In this document: in pieces, positions 11,774 through 18,089 of the stretch
Position numbering within the stretch: position 1 is the first letter of the stretch
Layout: the number at the start of each line of letters is the position of its first letter
Origin: a virus
Lineage: Duplodnaviria > Caudoviricetes
Virus record (IMG/VR): IMGVR_UViG_3300027986_000008
Coordinates: 1-64,000 of that record
Reading direction: 5' to 3' (one strand)
DNA: 64,000 bases
The notes under the pieces: generated by a model
Databases searched by the model: none
Told to the model about the DNA's origin: nothing
What the model saw: only the letters and a program-made list of their open reading frames with translations
Made by a program: the position numbers and the translations under genes

Positions 11774-11950
11774 GTGCAAACCATCCACATCACCATCGAA
11801 AGGGGAATTATATAGATGACTTCCATCGCTAGCCCCGCGCCTTTGCTTTCTTTCGCTTGCGTGCGCGAGCCTTCCCCTTTGCCGATTTCCCTTTCGGGTG
11901 GTAGGCCAACACGAGGTCTACCACCTTGTCCAGAATCTTGGGTGCGTCGC

Positions 11951-12868
11951 TCATCGGATGAGCCTCTTGTAGGTGAGCCGCTTTCCGGCACTGGCCACCA
12001 CGAAGCTGTCCAAGCGCTCCATCGTGTGTCGCGCGACGTTCCCCTCGTTGAGGCGAAACGTAAATTCATCGACGTAGCGGAACAGGTGCTTTTTGCTGGC
12101 GTGATGGTAGACGCCATGCAGCCCGCGTTTCAGGACGGCCCAGACACTCTCGATGGAGTTAGTGGAGACCGGACCACGGGCAAACTCTCCGGCGCTGTGG
12201 TTGACCCGCTCGTGACGATAGAACAGGCCGTCCAGGTCGTTGTACGCGCCGTACTCATCGGTGTAGATCGTAGAGCCAATTTCCACCGCGCCGTGGATCT
12301 CGTTTTGGATAGTGTTGATGCCGGTCGCGTCAACCACCATGGCGACGGTACGGCCTCCGCGTTCCCGCATTCCCAGCACGGCGGTTTTGCCGACCGACCC
12401 ACGGCCCGCGTTCAGCTTTTTGCAGGCGTGCTTGTTGCCTTCTTTTCCGCCGATGAAAGTCTCGTCAATCTCGACAATCCCGCGAAGCGTTTCCAGCTTA
12501 CCTCCGCAAGCTTCGCGGAGACGGCCCAGAACGAACCACGCGGACTTTTGCGTGATGCCGATCTCTTTAGCGAGTTGCATCGAGGAAATCCCCTTCCGCG
12601 CCGTCACGAGCAAGTACATAGAGTACAGCCACTTGTGCAGCGGAACGTGGGATCGCTCGAAGATGGTGTTCGTGCGGACGGTGAATATTTCGTTGCACGG
12701 GTTGCACCGGTAGTAGCCTCCGGCGCGGGCGGGAACGCAATCGCCAGCCGCGCAGAAGGGACACTTGACACCAGTCGGCCAGAGCCGCGCTTCGAGGTAA
12801 AGTCTCGCGGATTCGGCATCTGGGAACAACTCGAACAGTTGGAACGTGCTGATGGTGGAGCGAGACAT
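11951..12868 (-). CDS. tnp: IS1595-family DDE transposase
   Basis: Zn ribbon CPFC/CNPC, VEIDETFIGG, IYTDE, TNSIESVW, YVDEFTFR motifs. Confidence 0.95.
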   Translation of the reverse strand: MSRSTISTFQLFELFPDAESARLYLEARLWPTGVKCPFCAAGDCVPARAGGYYRCNPCNEIFTVRTNTIFERSHVPLHKWLYSMYLLVTARKGISSMQLAKEIGITQKSAWFVLGRLREACGGKLETLRGIVEIDETFIGGKEGNKHACKKLNAGRGSVGKTAVLGMRERGGRTVAMVVDATGINTIQNEIHGAVEIGSTIYTDEYGAYNDLDGLFYRHERVNHSAGEFARGPVSTNSIESVWAVLKRGLHGVYHHASKKHLFRYVDEFTFRLNEGNVARHTMERLDSFVVASAGKRLTYKRLIR

Positions 12869-13090
12869 CTATTCGACCTCCGAACGCAGGCGAAGATAGG
12901 GGTCGGAAGCGATGATTTCATCGGAGTCCGTGACGACCACTATGTCGGAATCGGAGAGCGTTCCGTCACAGTCAGCCTCAGGGCACGGAGCATTCAAGTA
13001 GCCCTCGTGAATCGGTTGGCTAGCTCCACACTTCGGGCACACGGCCACACCTTGCGGACAGCCAATCTGCTCTGCTCTTTCGCGTGTCAT
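12869..13090 (-). CDS. Inner IS cargo, Zn-binding hypothetical protein
   Basis: AGGAG SD; CPKC and CPEADC. Confidence 0.65.
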   Translation of the reverse strand: MTRERAEQIGCPQGVAVCPKCGASQPIHEGYLNAPCPEADCDGTLSDSDIVVVTDSDEIIASDPYLRLRSEVE

Positions 13091-13114
13091 GGCTTAGAAG
13101 CTCCTTTTTGCATA

Positions 13115-13366
13115 TTATTCAATCTCCAAGAACGCCGATGCGCGAACGTCGGGGTTCTCCACCGTCTGAATTTCATCTTTCCACACCAAGTCTCCAAAGA
13201 GCGCTTCAGCCTCGCGCTTTGCGCCGACTACGCTCTGACAATTCCGGGTGCTCATGAGCAATGCTGGCGCACCCGGTTGAGCACGAACCTTGACGCGAAA
13301 CCTTGCACCCTCGCGGGAGGAGCGGGATTCCCGCTCCCTTTCGATGGTGATAAAAATGGTCTGCAT
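13115..13366 (-). CDS. Inner IS cargo, paralogue of the split outer gene
   Basis: MQTIFITIERERESRSSREGARFRVKV...; internal palindrome. Confidence 0.85.
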   Translation of the reverse strand: MQTIFITIERERESRSSREGARFRVKVRAQPGAPALLMSTRNCQSVVGAKREAEALFGDLVWKDEIQTVENPDVRASAFLEIE

Positions 13367-13876
13367 TTACTTCGCCACCCGTGGAAGATAGCGGAACCAA
13401 TACCCGTCATCATCCTGCGCGATCCAAGTCACGTCGCCAGTGTCGAACGTGGCAAGAGCGGACTGCGCCATTTCCAGCGTGTCTTCCACATCTTTCCGCT
13501 GGTGGTCAAAGAGTTGATTCCAGGTTTCTGGCGACTCCATGACGCCTTCCATTTCTTCGATGATTTCTTGGAGTTCGAATCGCGTGGCGGGAGAGAACGG
13601 ATTGGAGCATCCGGCGATGAAGGCCATCAACACGCCTTCCTCTACTTCGCCGCCTACTTCCGCAATCCAGGCGCGGAGCTCCAGAGCCTCTTCGTCGCTG
13701 AGGCGATTACGGGTTTCCAGCGACATCGTGACGCGCGTCGTACCGTCCGGCTGGGGTTCGTAGTCGTCGCGCCATTCTCCGATGCACCCAAATTCCTGCA
13801 CGGCGCTGATGAGCGACTTCGGATCGTCGTCTTCCAAGTCGTATTGCGCTTCGGTGATAGACAGTTCAATGTTCAT
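13367..13876 (-). CDS. Inner IS cargo, acidic hypothetical protein
   Basis: AAGGAG SD before ATG 13876; leader resembles that of outer cargo gene 1 (CCCTTTGAGAAGGAGAA). Confidence 0.7.
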   Translation of the reverse strand: MNIELSITEAQYDLEDDDPKSLISAVQEFGCIGEWRDDYEPQPDGTTRVTMSLETRNRLSDEEALELRAWIAEVGGEVEEGVLMAFIAGCSNPFSPATRFELQEIIEEMEGVMESPETWNQLFDHQRKDVEDTLEMAQSALATFDTGDVTWIAQDDDGYWFRYLPRVAK

Positions 13877-13921
13877 GGTGTTTCTCCTTCTCAAAGGGGA
13901 CAAGATGTTTGCTACTCCTCA

Positions 13922-13950
13922 ATAGTAGCGGAGTTTTCCATGGAAGTCAA
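13922..13950 (-). promoter_or_regulatory. Inner IS promoter with -35 inside the terminal IR
   Basis: TTGACT-N17-TACTAT. Confidence 0.7.
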
Positions 13951-14179
13951 GTATATAATTCCCATCGAAAGGGAGCGGGATTCCCGCTCCTCTCGCGACG
14001 GCGCACGCTTCCGGGTGAAGGTCCACGCGCAACCGGGTAGCCCAGCACTCCTCATGAGCACGCGGAATTGTCAGAGCGTCGTCGGCGCGAAGCGCGAAGC
14101 CGAGGCCATCTTTGGCGACCTCGATTGGCGCGACGAAATGGGCGAGATTCGATCCTCTGCGTTTCTGGAGATGGAATAA

Positions 14180-15205
14180 ATGAGTCGATCCACTATCAGC
14201 ACCTTCGAGCTTTTCGACCTCTTCCCCGACGAAGAATCCGCCCGCGTCTATCTCGAAGGGCGACTCTGGCCGAATGGCACGGTCTGCCCGACGTGCCAAG
14301 CGCAGGATCGCATCACTCCCCGCGCCAAGGGGTACTATCGCTGCAACGCCTGCCAGCTTGATTTCACCGTCCGCACTGGGACGATTTTCGAGCGTTCGCA
14401 TGTCCCGCTGCACAAGTGGGTCTATGCCATGTATTTGCTCGTCACGGCCCGCAAAGGCATCTCCAGTTTGCAACTGGCAAAAGAGATCGGGGTCACTCAG
14501 AAAACCGCGTGGTTCGTCCTGGGACGCTTGCGCGAGGCATGTGGTGGCGAGATCGAGAAGTTGCAGGGCACAATCGAAATCGACGAAACCTTCGTCGGCG
14601 GCAAAGAGCGGAACAAGCACGAATCGAAAAAGCTCAAGGCTGGACGAGGGTCTGTCGGTAAGACCGCAGTCTTGGGTATGCGAGAGCGTGGGGGACGGAC
14701 CATAGCCATGGTCGTACCGTCCACGGACCTGGGCACCGTCCAGAACGAAATCCATGGTGCAGTCGAAGTCGGTAGCCAACTCTACACCGATGAGTTCGGA
14801 GCGTACACCGACCTCGATGGATTGTTCTTTCGTCACGAGACGGTCAACCACAGCGCCAAAGAGTTTGTCCGAGGCGCGGCTCATACGAACGGTATTGAGA
14901 GCGTCTGGGCCGTCCTGAAGCGCGGGCTGCATGGCGTCTACCATCACGCCAGCCCGAAGCACCTGCACCGTTACGTCGATGAATTCACCTGGAGGCTGAA
15001 TGACGGGAATGTGAAGCGTCACAGCCTGCGAAGGCTGGATAGCTTCGTGGACGCGACGAAAGGCAAGCATCTCACATACAAGACGGCTCTGCCGATGAAA
15101 CCCGTTCCACCGATCCTCGATAAGATGGCCGATTTGGTGCTGAATTATCGACCAAAAGACAAAGCCAAAACGCCGCGAAAGCGGAAGAAGGCGAAGCGCT
15201 CGTAA
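14180..15205 (+). CDS. tnp: IS1595-family DDE transposase with basic C-terminal extension
   Basis: Same motifs as 11951-12868. Confidence 0.95.
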   Translation: MSRSTISTFELFDLFPDEESARVYLEGRLWPNGTVCPTCQAQDRITPRAKGYYRCNACQLDFTVRTGTIFERSHVPLHKWVYAMYLLVTARKGISSLQLAKEIGVTQKTAWFVLGRLREACGGEIEKLQGTIEIDETFVGGKERNKHESKKLKAGRGSVGKTAVLGMRERGGRTIAMVVPSTDLGTVQNEIHGAVEVGSQLYTDEFGAYTDLDGLFFRHETVNHSAKEFVRGAAHTNGIESVWAVLKRGLHGVYHHASPKHLHRYVDEFTWRLNDGNVKRHSLRRLDSFVDATKGKHLTYKTALPMKPVPPILDKMADLVLNYRPKDKAKTPRKRKKAKRS

Positions 15206-15264
15206 GTGACTGGAAATTATGAGAGTAGGTAGTCATCTATATAATTCCCTAAAAAAGGATCTAA

Positions 15265-16485
15265 ATGGATGAGCGAATTAACGGATTTTCTCTTTGTGCC
15301 GGAGTCGGAGGACTCGATCTCGGAGTCGAGATTGCTTTCCCACGATACCGATGTATCGCAGCCGTCGAAAACAATCCGGAGGCCGCAAAGCGATTCCGTC
15401 TCCGCTTTCCAGAGGCGAAGGTCTTCCGAGATGTCGTGGGATTCGATGGACGACGAATCAACGGTATTGTGGATTGCGTTACTGCGGGCTGGCCGTGCCA
15501 ACCGCATAGCATTGCCGGAAAGCGGCTTGGAACCGCAGACGAGCGATGGATCTGGGGAGATATCGCTAGAATCCTCGGAGAAAGCGGAGCGCCTCTCTTC
15601 TTTGGTGAGAACGTATCGGGACTCCTGCGAGACGCCGACGGCGGTACTGAGGAAGGAGCCGACGGAGAAGTGGACGACGACTCAGACGGATCTATGGGGG
15701 GAATGGGAACCGTTTTGCGGGATTTGGCCGCGATGGGGTTTATCACTGTATGGGGAAGTCTACGAGCTTCCCAAGTGGGAGCCTCGCACGGAAGACCGAG
15801 AGTTTTCGTGTTGGCCTACAAGCCGACGGGAGGATTCCGAATCGACTGGTGCTCATCGAGGATATGCGGATACGCTAACGAGCGCAACGGAAGCGTGGAG
15901 TACGCCGAGAAGTCAATCGGCTCAATCCACCGGGCCGAGCAGAATAAAGAATCGCGAGGATATACAGACTCAAGCGGAGAAGTGGAAATCGGATCTTACG
16001 AAGGCAGATTATTTTTGGGGAACTCCGACCTCGCGAGACTGGAAGGACGGAGCATGCGAGAACTCGGAGGTTCCGGTGAATCGTCTGCTAGGCCGGGAAG
16101 TAGTGAAATGGAAGACTCCTCACGGTCTCTCGTTCCGACCGGAAGCGGGAGATCCAGGTGGAGGAGGGGAATTCGCAGAGCAGGCGACGAATTGGGGATC
16201 TTCGCGCCCGGCCCAAACTCTCCCGATTGGCCTGCAATTCTCGATCATAATTACCTGCTTCGCCCCTCTCTTTCTATATTTGAGCAATGCCTTACCGAGT
16301 CCCTACAACAAACTGGAGTCGATGTTCAAGAGGCGGTTGAATCCGAACTTCGTAGACTGGATGATGGGCTGGCTCGTCGATTGGTCGAGCGAAGGCCGCG
16401 TCTTTCGTGCGGCGGAAATGGAGTCGTACCTCTTCAAGCAGCGGCATGCTTTACTATCCTTGCTCGGAGAATCGGACTAATCTAA
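15265..16485 (+). CDS. C5 DNA cytosine methyltransferase (alpha-like chain)
   Basis: Motif I LCAGVGG, IV GWPCQ, VI ENV, VIII H.RPRVF, X GNGVVP. Confidence 0.9.
   Translation: MDERINGFSLCAGVGGLDLGVEIAFPRYRCIAAVENNPEAAKRFRLRFPEAKVFRDVVGFDGRRINGIVDCVTAGWPCQPHSIAGKRLGTADERWIWGDIARILGESGAPLFFGENVSGLLRDADGGTEEGADGEVDDDSDGSMGGMGTVLRDLAAMGFITVWGSLRASQVGASHGRPRVFVLAYKPTGGFRIDWCSSRICGYANERNGSVEYAEKSIGSIHRAEQNKESRGYTDSSGEVEIGSYEGRLFLGNSDLARLEGRSMRELGGSGESSARPGSSEMEDSSRSLVPTGSGRSRWRRGIRRAGDELGIFAPGPNSPDWPAILDHNYLLRPSLSIFEQCLTESLQQTGVDVQEAVESELRRLDDGLARRLVERRPRLSCGGNGVVPLQAAACFTILARRIGLI
15269..16480 (+). CDS. Fully overlapping +1-frame ORF, putative MTase beta chain
   Basis: 403 open codons; repeated W.TP motifs and motif-IX-like RLNPNFVDWMMGW. 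Confidence 0.65.
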   Translation: MSELTDFLFVPESEDSISESRLLSHDTDVSQPSKTIRRPQSDSVSAFQRRRSSEMSWDSMDDESTVLWIALLRAGRANRIALPESGLEPQTSDGSGEISLESSEKAERLSSLVRTYRDSCETPTAVLRKEPTEKWTTTQTDLWGEWEPFCGIWPRWGLSLYGEVYELPKWEPRTEDREFSCWPTSRREDSESTGAHRGYADTLTSATEAWSTPRSQSAQSTGPSRIKNREDIQTQAEKWKSDLTKADYFWGTPTSRDWKDGACENSEVPVNRLLGREVVKWKTPHGLSFRPEAGDPGGGGEFAEQATNWGSSRPAQTLPIGLQFSIIITCFAPLFLYLSNALPSPYNKLESMFKRRLNPNFVDWMMGWLVDWSSEGRVFRAAEMESYLFKQRHALLSLLGESD

Positions 16486-16841: not shown

Positions 16842-17555
16842 ATGGGTGGTTCCTCGTTGGACGAAATTCCGGCAGGAAGGGCCGAGAAGAAGGAACGAAA
16901 GTACGAGAACGGCTTCGAGAGAGCCTACCGTATGGCTGTTCAGTCACAAGATTTCGAATTAGCCTTGGGAATGCGAAAGAAACTCAACGGAAAGAAAATC
17001 GTGTATGCAAGCTCTAGAAGAAAAGGAATAGTGATGGATCACTCCGACGTCTTCCTGGTTCTCTCTGAGATGATTCGGAAGTCCGCCGAGGTAGAGTATC
17101 CGTCCGTTCCGACGTTAAAGCTCCGTTGCTTGATCGTATCGTTCGCTCTCTTCGATTGCTCTCGAAAGCTCGGAATAACCGGAGCAAAGCTCATCGGAGG
17201 ATGGTATCGCTTTGAGCCTCCACCGACCGGCAGGCCGGTTTTCGGGGACCAATCCTGGATTCAAGTTGCGAAGATGTATCGAGATGAAAAGGACCGTCAC
17301 GCCTGGGTTGAGTACGACGAAAAGATTTGGGATTTAACGAGAACCCAGTACGGAAACTTTCCCGATGTCTCTATCGCGACGGTCCCGAACCCTCACTATA
17401 TCGCAGATTGCATATCGATGGACGGAGAACTCGTTCGTCATCTTCTTCAGTCATGCGGAAACGACGGTCCCGGAGAAGCCTTCCGAATATCCAGCCGAGT
17501 TATAGCTGAATTTGGTGCGCTAGGCGGGATTCGAACCCGCAACCAAGGAGCTTAG
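16842..17555 (+). CDS. Hypothetical protein with transglutaminase/papain-like motif; start uncertain (alternative 17034)
   Basis: C..VS.AL...HAWVEYDEKIWDLT; 3' end overlaps the antisense tRNA. Confidence 0.5.
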   Translation: MGGSSLDEIPAGRAEKKERKYENGFERAYRMAVQSQDFELALGMRKKLNGKKIVYASSRRKGIVMDHSDVFLVLSEMIRKSAEVEYPSVPTLKLRCLIVSFALFDCSRKLGITGAKLIGGWYRFEPPPTGRPVFGDQSWIQVAKMYRDEKDRHAWVEYDEKIWDLTRTQYGNFPDVSIATVPNPHYIADCISMDGELVRHLLQSCGNDGPGEAFRISSRVIAEFGALGGIRTRNQGA

Positions 17556-17590
17556 ATTTCCCTGCTCTGACCAGTTCGAGCTACTAGCGC
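17513..17590 (-). tRNA. tRNA with CUA anticodon (amber-reading)
   Basis: GCGCTAG/CTAGCGC-A-CCA acceptor; GCTC/GAGC D arm; anticodon loop ATCTAAG; GCGGG-TTCGAAT-CCCGC T arm. Confidence 0.9.
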
Positions 17591-18089
17591 TAATCACGAT
17601 AGAAATTGGTTCCGCGGGAAGGGTTCGAACCTCCGACCTCTCCGAGGCTTTAAGGGCTTCGGATCGCTCTGCCGACTGAGCTACCGCGGATCGATTGAAC
17701 TCGACCGGCCTCCAGAGCCGGTAATTCTTCAGCGCCTGCTTCCTCTCTCGATCGAGAGGCTCCGTGATCAATGACGTGAAGCCGAGACCTCCGTCCGGCT
17801 CGATCCACGCGAAGTACTCGATACCGGCATCGACGAGCTTCTGCTTCGCCTTCGAGAGAGACCGCTCGTCCGGAACTCCGACCACGACGAGGTTCGGAAC
17901 TCCGTCGATCTCGCTCCAGGAAGCGAGCGTGAGAGATGCATGGTTGGATTGAACGATCTGATTCGCCAGAGTCATGTCCTGACGCACGAAGAGGAAAACG
18001 TAACGGTCGGATGGATTATCGTGGAGGTCTTGATCGATCTATCCAGAGAGACCGACCCGCTGAACTTCTTCCGTAGCTAAAATTGCCAA
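17520..18089 (-). CDS. Pth2-like peptidyl-tRNA hydrolase with in-frame TAG at codon 17 (18039-18041); frame continues through both tRNAs
   Basis: YVFLFVRQDM...QIVQSNHA, LVVVGVPDE..L, WIEPD, TSL..EP match the Pth2/PTRHD1 pattern. The only upstream start-type codons (TTG 18089, ATT) precede the TAG. Confidence 0.75.
17607..17690 (-). tRNA. Atypical tRNA with extended anticodon arm and UUA at the loop centre (ochre-reading)
   Basis: TCCGCGG/CCGCGGA-A-CCA acceptor; normal D and T arms; arm TCCGA-A-GC-[CCTTAAA]-GC-C-TCGGA. Confidence 0.8.

Follow-up and report, generated by a model that had tools for sequence, protein, structure and literature searches.

A Pth2-like gene behind an in-frame amber codon and beside a suppressor tRNA: a candidate suppression-dependent module in phages that use the standard genetic code

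Phages that have recoded TAG (genetic code 15), among them crAss-like phages, Lak phages and other gut phages, carry their own CUA tRNA to read in-frame TAG codons. In the bacterial gene prfB, which encodes the release factor RF2, an early in-frame stop makes a termination-related gene report the decoding of that stop, in this case by +1 frameshifting. ArfA, which in E. coli senses the capacity of the transfer-messenger RNA (tmRNA) system, is encoded by an open reading frame (ORF) that has no stop ahead of an RNA-processing site, a hairpin cut by RNase III. The bar minigenes of phage lambda (AUG-AUA-stop) are toxic in hosts defective in peptidyl-tRNA hydrolase (Pth). PTH2 proteins have been noted in jumbo phages, and a role in ribosome rescue has been proposed for them (Iyer et al. 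2021, PMC7824862). Here we describe a locus that shares a feature with each of these systems. It lies in the virus record IMGVR_UViG_3300027986_000008 of IMG/VR, a 102,276-bp genome that CheckV rates as complete, of which the stretch analyzed (the window) is the first 64 kb. In it, an in-frame amber codon (TAG in the gene, UAG in the message) stands directly ahead of a Pth2-like domain, and a tRNA with a CUA anticodon follows.

Compared with recoded phages, this phage uses the standard code, with TAG ending 24 ordinary genes, and the amber codon of interest is confined to one 5' position of one gene family. In contrast to prfB, the decoding event proposed here would depend on a dedicated suppressor tRNA, and the product would be an esterase of Pth2 fold and not a release factor; the autoregulation known for prfB has, in feedback onto UAG decoding, only a candidate counterpart here. 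Where the ArfA message is cut at a hairpin, the predicted cut here would be made by RNase P at the 5' end of a tRNA-like RNA, and the layout applies to about a fifth of the family. As in the bar minigenes of lambda, a mini-ORF of two codons and a stop opens the gene in 58 of 87 relatives, but it is in frame with the Pth2-like domain and linked to a suppressor tRNA, and the leader in the window has 16 codons and a TTG start. The PTH2 proteins of jumbo phages belong to the same superfamily; the paper describing them does not mention an in-frame amber codon or suppressor tRNAs, and the present phage, at 102 kb, is not a jumbo phage. The initial annotation of this DNA knew of no description of such a combination, and our literature searches likewise returned no published account of an amber-gated Pth2 paired with a suppressor tRNA.

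We propose, with a probability of about 0.55, that the locus is a self-contained phage module in which a Pth2-fold tRNA-ester hydrolase has been made dependent on amber suppression. A short leader would be followed by an in-frame UAG and a purine, a suppression-friendly context, and then by the Pth2-like domain, with tRNA-CUA just downstream on the same strand and probably in the same transcript (Table 1). We observe the parts themselves, the fold, the conservation of the gate, the linkage to CUA tRNAs and the standard code. The initial annotation had described a minus-strand cassette of a Pth2-like ORF with UUA and CUA tRNAs ending in CCA, and ARAGORN and Rfam both bear this out. ARAGORN lists no tRNA gene other than these two, either in the window or in the rest of the record. 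Both lie on the minus strand, have an encoded CCA at the 3' end and score above the Rfam tRNA gathering score of 29 bits (CUA, 52.3 bits; UUA, 46.9 bits). The chance that the only two tRNA genes of a genome would both have stop anticodons is about (3/64)^2.

Table 1. Coordinates of the cassette features in the window, in the order in which they would be transcribed
Feature	Position	Strand	Basis
Candidate leader, opening with TTG (18089-18087), then 15 sense codons; in frame with the TAG and ending there; start uncertain	18042..18089	-	Sequence
In-frame TAG (the "gate") directly ahead of the Pth2-like domain, followed by ATC	18039..18041	-	Sequence; conserved in relatives
ORF P0001 of predicted Pth2 fold, 116 codons from the TAG to the tRNA-like RNA	17691..18038	-	AlphaFold, Foldseek
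tRNA-like RNA with long anticodon stem, 84 nt, UUA at 34-36, CCA	17607..17690	-	ARAGORN, Rfam
Predicted amber-suppressor tRNA of canonical form, 78 nt, CUA, encoded CCA	17513..17590	-	ARAGORN, Rfam
First in-frame stop (TAG) of the Pth2-like frame, in the 3' acceptor strand of tRNA-CUA	17520..17522	-	Sequence

Past the gate, the first canonical start is a GTG at 17987, inside strand beta-1 and downstream of the conserved first strand, RYVFLFV; as its sequence reads, the Pth2-like domain lacks its own start codon. Related loci were collected from IMG/VR, metagenomes and metagenome-assembled genomes with a 12-sequence alignment as the query (a scan with P0001 as a single protein recovered nothing), and 91 unique loci show the N terminus of the domain. 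TAG is the in-frame stop nearest upstream of the domain in 87 of these, 1-11 codons ahead of it, and TAA takes its place in two others; among the equivalent upstream stops of other ORFs (100 codons or longer, first 31 unique loci), the background share of TAG is 0.28. The first set of loci had TAG in 33 of 34 cases, with a nominal p of ~1e-17 that ignores kinship. An ATG lies 2-20 codons upstream of the TAG, with no stop between, in 84 of the 87 TAG loci, and 58 of these loci read exactly ATG-NNN-TAG. It is this leader ATG, and not the domain, that is preceded by a GGAG-type Shine-Dalgarno sequence or a TTGACA-N17-TATAAT-like promoter, and such a promoter would put the transcript start at the leader ATG. 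A purine follows the TAG in 85 of 87 loci, which is reportedly the classical favorable context for amber suppression, from work of 1983 by Bossi and by Miller and Albertini; at the TAGs that end the ordinary genes of this phage, a pyrimidine comes next in 14 of 24.

The gate is also present in cultured phages: Acinetobacter phage ME3 (ATG ACT TAG), Serratia phage BF (ATG ACG CAC TAG), Pectobacterium phage CBB (ATG GCA CAA TAG), Xanthomonas phages XbC2 (ATG GCT CAC TAG) and XacN1 (ATG AAG TAG), Salmonella phage Arash (ATG CTG TAG) and Ralstonia phage RsoM2USA (ATG TTG TAG). In the records of cultured phages the Pth2-like gene is truncated, split or missing, as expected if gene callers stop at the TAG. 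TAA-gated versions of the gene were seen on two AT-rich metagenome contigs, L121 (1390-2020) and L125 (1396-2030), laid out as a Shine-Dalgarno sequence, ATG, four codons, TAA, ATT and the domain. Neither contig has a tRNA within 1.5 kb of the gene, and a scan for relatives of the TAA-gated variants returned TAG-gated loci only.

The second element of the proposed module is the tRNA. The tRNA-CUA of the window folds into a cloverleaf in which a 5-bp anticodon stem bears the 7-nt loop AUCUAAG (U33, CUA, A37), features that match the form expected of an amber suppressor. Scanning downstream of homologues brought out stop-anticodon tRNAs, mostly CUA and often abutting the gene. ARAGORN places one or more CUA tRNAs on the same strand at 21 of 32 IMG/VR loci, often two or three of them and often beginning within a few bases of the domain end, and Rfam and wider flanks added CUA tRNAs at loci L008, L018, L030 and L035. 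A CUA tRNA stands within the short downstream flanks of 47 of the 75 loci for which those flanks extend 400 nt or more. All seven of the cultured gated phages have one; those of XacN1 and RsoM2USA are taken from the papers on these phages, in which no target gene could be named for the suppressor tRNAs. In the Arash record, the tRNA at L047:6310-6384 is entered as tRNA-Phe and read by ARAGORN as CUA, and the adjacent Pth2-like gene is annotated as a 50-aa fragment. We also considered whether tRNA-CUA might initiate at the UAG and rejected this idea, since G1-C72 is paired, the three G-C anticodon-stem pairs of the initiator type are absent, and leaders with ATG and Shine-Dalgarno sequences are the rule.

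Gate and tRNA together bear on a rival explanation, termination-reinitiation, in which the mini-leader would load ribosomes that restart at the codon after UAG and tRNA-CUA would be irrelevant to the gene. Stop-start coupling is common in bacteria. The codon after the TAG is ATH, ATG or GTN in 79 of 87 loci, and in 43 it is ATT, ATC, ATA, ATG or GTG (ATC in the window). Yet it is GTT, GTA or GTC in 36 loci and something else (GGG, GAA, AAG, CTG and the like) in 8, and to our knowledge none of these codons is a known initiator. Moreover, reinitiation would be served by any stop codon, yet the stop is so consistently TAG, and the linkage to CUA tRNAs would go unexplained. So would the case of Klebsiella phage RaK2, in which an ATG stands three codons past the TAG with no upstream leader: in its tRNA region none of the eight tRNAs typed by ARAGORN is CUA (Rfam gives nine hits there, one of them untyped). 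We therefore regard reinitiation as improbable.

A further possibility is that the gate is a symptom of recoding, with the suppressor reassigning TAG late in infection and the Pth2-like gene being one of many TAG-containing late genes. Published descriptions of TAG-recoded phages report CUA suppressor tRNAs, and several of the relatives found here are jumbo phages with several CUA tRNAs. The genome itself argues against it. Under code 11, greedy ORFs cover 0.913 of the genome, a share that stands at 0.906 once TAG is read as sense, and the chosen ORFs end in TGA (64), TAA (37) or TAG (24), in agreement with the initial annotation, which had held that ordinary genes still end in TAG or TAA and that the code is not simply reassigned. 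Neither the ORF-coverage scan nor the paired-ORF scan of the genome gave a sign of TAG or TAA recoding. ORFs preceded by a leader and a stop are not enriched for TAG (TAG, 20/126; TAA, 12/124; TGA, 23/184), and the scan of leader-plus-TAG ORFs yielded no additional amber-gated genes in this genome. At the related loci, recoding TAG gains no more ORF coverage than a TAA control, and the cultured phages with the gate are annotated under the standard code. The phage uses the standard code, and a late code switch seems to us very improbable.

The protein behind the gate has the predicted alpha/beta fold of Pth2, a four-stranded sheet with flanking helices. Its AlphaFold model, built on a 60-sequence alignment, has a mean predicted local distance difference test (pLDDT) score of 93.6, with the folded domain at approximately 17709-18002. 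The likeness to Pth2 that the initial annotation had seen in this ORF is upheld by Foldseek, for which the top 10 matches are all Pth2 structures (template modeling score 0.64-0.72, probability 1.00), the best being 3erj, 2zv3, 1q7s, 1wn2 and 1xty (AF2095, MJ0051, human Bit1/PTRH2, PH1539 and Sulfolobus Pth2). At the level of sequence, P0001 alone matches Pfam PTH2 weakly (E 0.023), with 15.3 bits where the gathering cut-off is 23. Of 60 relatives, 16 have PF01981 as their sole family match (E <= 0.01), and a Pth chain from the PDB matches the P0001 family profile at E 0.009. Its PHROG matches, phrog_34073 and phrog_1866, are both listed as "unknown function". An exhaustive profile search defined a family of 815 representatives in which R19, H33 and D82 are invariant in the alignment and Q27 nearly so, and the domain is under clear purifying selection. 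Mutagenesis of the Sulfolobus enzyme reportedly assigned catalysis in archaeal Pth2 to an Asp and to the Lys of a GK loop, and D82 is, from its place in the alignment, a plausible equivalent of that Asp.

This pattern of conservation also speaks to two other readings of the locus, a toxin-antidote or defense module, which the initial annotation had listed among its options, and a decaying pseudogene beside leftover tRNAs. A suppressor tRNA can be harmful to the cell, and the copy in the window lacks the usual ATG leader. Against these points stand the purifying selection and invariant residues just described, the conserved position of the TAG, which is unlike random nonsense mutation, and a context of translation RNAs (tRNA arrays and phage tmRNA). 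Pfam and PHROGs gave no named toxin or defense family for the hydrolase and the neighboring ORFs of a few relatives, the PADLOC library not having been searched. Either reading has, in our estimate, only a very small chance of being right.

A second domain sometimes accompanies the Pth2-like domain. About 175 aa long, with HD-like motifs (phrog_14850, no Pfam hit), it is fused ahead of the Pth2-like domain in XacN1 ORF364 (L037:952-1803), a fusion that stands behind ATG-AAG-TAG, and it forms an overlapping downstream gene in ME3 (ME3_194, L039:1815-2378) and Arash (gp83c, L047:5311-5847). Such an arrangement is a hint, of the kind that gene fusions give, that the HD-like domain may be a functional partner. 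It is absent from the genome of this window. Neighboring ORFs downstream matched no Pfam family and only PHROGs of unknown function.

The main rival to the proposed module gives the enzyme a different target. In a negative-feedback governor, the enzyme would hydrolyze the aminoacyl or peptidyl ester of the suppressor tRNA itself, so that more readthrough would yield more enzyme and hence less suppression, a set-point controller analogous to the control of RF2 through the in-frame UGA of prfB. It would fit the identity of the sensor codon, which in nearly all loci is the codon of the linked tRNA, and the tight linkage of gene and tRNAs, often in a transcript-like layout. A limiter would also make sense in a phage that is not adapted to strong readthrough, and the active-site region seems to differ from that of classical Pth2. 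What such a governor lacks is support for specificity toward the suppressor tRNA. Although the loops of the linked CUA tRNAs are canonical (U33, CUA, A37), their acceptor stems and discriminator bases are diverse, which disfavors a single co-evolving recognition surface, and classical Pth2 enzymes are general hydrolases. We consider this feedback unlikely, if less so than any of the other rivals.

In the suppression-dependent module that we favor, ribosomes entering from the leader would either terminate with RF1 at the UAG or, if tRNA-CUA has been made and charged, read through into the enzyme, and the dose of hydrolase would thereby track how much UAG readthrough occurs in an infected cell. 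The part of the scheme that the gate and the tRNA make likely is that production of the domain requires the UAG to be decoded and that the tRNA-CUA encoded beside it does the decoding. It corresponds to one option of the initial annotation, a controlled readthrough switch with Pth2 as clean-up: the switch fits best of the options, in view of a conserved UAG readable by tRNA-CUA, and the clean-up role is a conjecture about function. In this role, which we put forward tentatively and at somewhat less than even odds, the enzyme would recycle peptidyl-tRNAs that accumulate under an active suppressor through readthrough into 3' ends, non-stop stalls and drop-off. In E. coli, suppressor tRNAs drive ribosomes past stops to the ends of messages and load the tmRNA system, and in the lambda bar minigenes a two-codon leader and stop favor peptidyl-tRNA drop-off. 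The same logic of peptidyl-tRNA clean-up would explain why phage tmRNA genes lie beside the cassette in relatives, on the same strand and 1.4-2.5 kb upstream of the gated gene at loci L013, L020, L024, L025, L026, L030 and L035; one of these seven genes matches Rfam's permuted tmRNA model. Another locus, on a 360-kb phage contig, has a GOLLD RNA (RF02032, 194.5 bits; L028:912-1399) 1.6 kb upstream of its gated gene, and a tRNA is called at 979-1051, within the span of that RNA.

The other RNA of the cassette, with UUA, had been taken in the initial annotation for a stop-reading tRNA like its neighbor, and here the evidence leads elsewhere. Its acceptor, D and T arms are normal. A 9-bp anticodon stem, mismatched at its first pair, carries the loop CCUUAAA, which has C33; in the Rfam alignment, 15 nt stand in place of the 7-nt anticodon loop. 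An ochre suppressor of normal form would have a 5-bp anticodon stem and U33, and U33 is universal in tRNA anticodon loops. Because the stem is 4 bp too long and U33 is missing, the UUA RNA would not be an ordinary decoder, and considerations of ribosome geometry make normal decoding very unlikely. An archaeal-type intron was considered and rejected, as the insert is only 8 nt and the lysin implies a bacterial host.

The four closest relatives of P0001, which are 52-59% identical to it (L049, L129, L005 and L002), each have a long-stem RNA of this kind close behind the ORF, with loops CCAUAAA, CGUCAAAA, CCUCAAAA and CUUAUCC. Four of the five phages thus have a stop anticodon, UUA or UCA, as the loop triplet, and one has AUA. 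When the long helix is aligned over the five phages, 84% of cells are paired and both sides have changed in 6 of 9 pairs, a level that neither shuffles nor slid registers approach; since pairing has been kept with compensatory changes, the long stem is under selection. A canonical CUA tRNA follows the long-stem RNA in four of the five, and the L002 contig ends before that point.

RNAs of a comparable kind occur elsewhere. Anticodon-less tRNA-like RNAs, in which the acceptor, D and T arms and the CCA are intact and the anticodon arm is a 7-10-bp stem capped by a GNRA or other tetraloop, recur in gated-Pth2 loci (L014:3537-3612, L031:3394-3463, L016:4034-4115, L082:547-625, L100:2902-2977 and L028:4119-4207). 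Long-arm tRNA-like RNAs proved widespread in phage contigs, where a pattern scan found 32 more of them, mostly away from Pth2-like genes. ARAGORN assigns Thr(AGU) to the tRNAs directly adjoining the gated gene at L013:3350-3425 and L021:3329-3404, whose loops are non-canonical (C33, C37). Judged by their predicted structures, these RNAs point to a class of structured phage tRNA-like RNAs that may be unable to decode.

Such RNAs invite a reading in which the cassette terminates or rescues translation independently of RF1: stop-anticodon tRNAs, or the long-stem RNA, would take the chain and leave, and the Pth2-like enzyme would free the peptide. The initial annotation had offered a version of this as an RF1 substitute, in which the two tRNAs decode stops. 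That version lacks support, as tRNA-CUA has the form of an ordinary elongator suppressor, which would extend the chain, and the UUA RNA lacks normal decoding geometry. The idea survives only in a modified form centered on the non-decoding RNA. A chargeable tRNA body that does not decode would enter ribosomes stalled at stops or at message ends, take over the nascent chain and exit as peptidyl-RNA, from which the phage hydrolase would strip the chain, amounting to tmRNA-like rescue without tagging that is on only while the amber suppressor is active. The long-stem RNA does have an intact acceptor arm, T arm and CCA together with a stem that should preclude normal decoding, its loop is UUA or UCA in most of the group, it always adjoins the hydrolase there, and tmRNA genes neighbor the cassette in other relatives. 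On the other side, we know of no ribosome that accepts a tRNA whose anticodon stem exceeds the norm by 4 bp, the loop triplet of one relative is AUA, and no charging identity element such as G3:U70 was seen in the long-stem RNA. It is quite improbable that this RNA and the tetraloop-capped ones partner the enzyme in RNA-based ribosome release, and the RF1-independent reading as a whole is no more credible.

The long-stem RNA also marks an unusual junction. It begins one base past the last codon of P0001 and 18 nt past the last residue of the folded domain, and no stop intervenes between the domain and the tRNAs: the Pth2-like frame is open through the whole tRNA-like RNA and the spacer. All five members of the closest group (the window, L002, L005, L049 and L129) lack a stop before the tRNA-like RNA. 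The tail past the domain is not a conserved peptide, because relatives use two different frames for it. Cleavage by RNase P at the 5' end of the tRNA-like RNA would, in this phage and its closest relatives, turn the transcript into a non-stop message, and by analogy with ArfA this message could act as a second sensor, with the fate of the protein set by trans-translation.

Several points weigh against the suppression-dependent module, or against parts of it. Readthrough, tRNA charging, the substrate of the enzyme and the processing of the transcript are steps that we infer. The window leader has no ATG, and from the preceding TAA to the gate the TTG is the one canonical start; no clear Shine-Dalgarno sequence was found at this leader, and a simple sigma-70 scan upstream of it found no promoter. 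As far as the sequence tells, the window copy could be weakly expressed or start elsewhere. Many relatives encode two or three distinct CUA tRNAs, a supply that seems excessive for a single small gate. Backup stops are not enriched after the TAG-ending genes of this phage (median distance 33 codons, compared with 19-20 for TAA and TGA genes), and the phage is not adapted to strong amber readthrough; the suppressor must therefore be weak, brief or costly. In one alignment, the region of the canonical Pth2 "GK" lysine looks two residues shorter and the Lys is replaced, so that substrate or chemistry may differ from classical peptidyl-tRNA hydrolysis. Finally, a tRNA abuts the domain end in only 18 of 84 family loci, about a fifth, and many loci have an ordinary stop codon; the stop-less layout is a feature of a subgroup and not the core of the system.

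The cassette is antiparallel to the plus-strand genes that flank it. Nearby are genes for IS1595 transposases and a cytosine-methylase-like gene, and farther off are terminase, MuF, portal and lysin genes. The genome is that of a tailed phage of a bacterium, the bacterial host following from the peptidoglycan-directed lysin, and a DNA similarity search against known phages gave no match. Two features of these neighbors deserve a record. At 15265-16485, two frames on the same strand, with starts 4 nt apart, are both open for ~400 codons across the cytosine-methyltransferase-like gene. At 11800-15260, two IS1595-family transposase genes lie close by on opposite strands, with long antisense open frames.

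Our findings fit into a broader question of what suppressor tRNAs do in phages that keep the standard code, for which the early UAG of the Pth2-like gene offers a conserved candidate target. Because of the TAG, gene callers cut this gene short or miss it. The locus described here adds a minimal form of the cassette, in which its tRNA genes are the only ones of a non-jumbo, standard-code phage, together with a long-stem tRNA-like RNA with C33 whose helix is supported by covariation, and a stop-less junction common to its subgroup. The cultured carriers Arash, BF, CBB, ME3, XacN1, XbC2 and RsoM2USA make the cassette testable. If the proposed reading is true, the Pth2-like gene would be a natural gene switch that depends on a suppressor tRNA and is tied to the recycling of peptidyl-tRNA.

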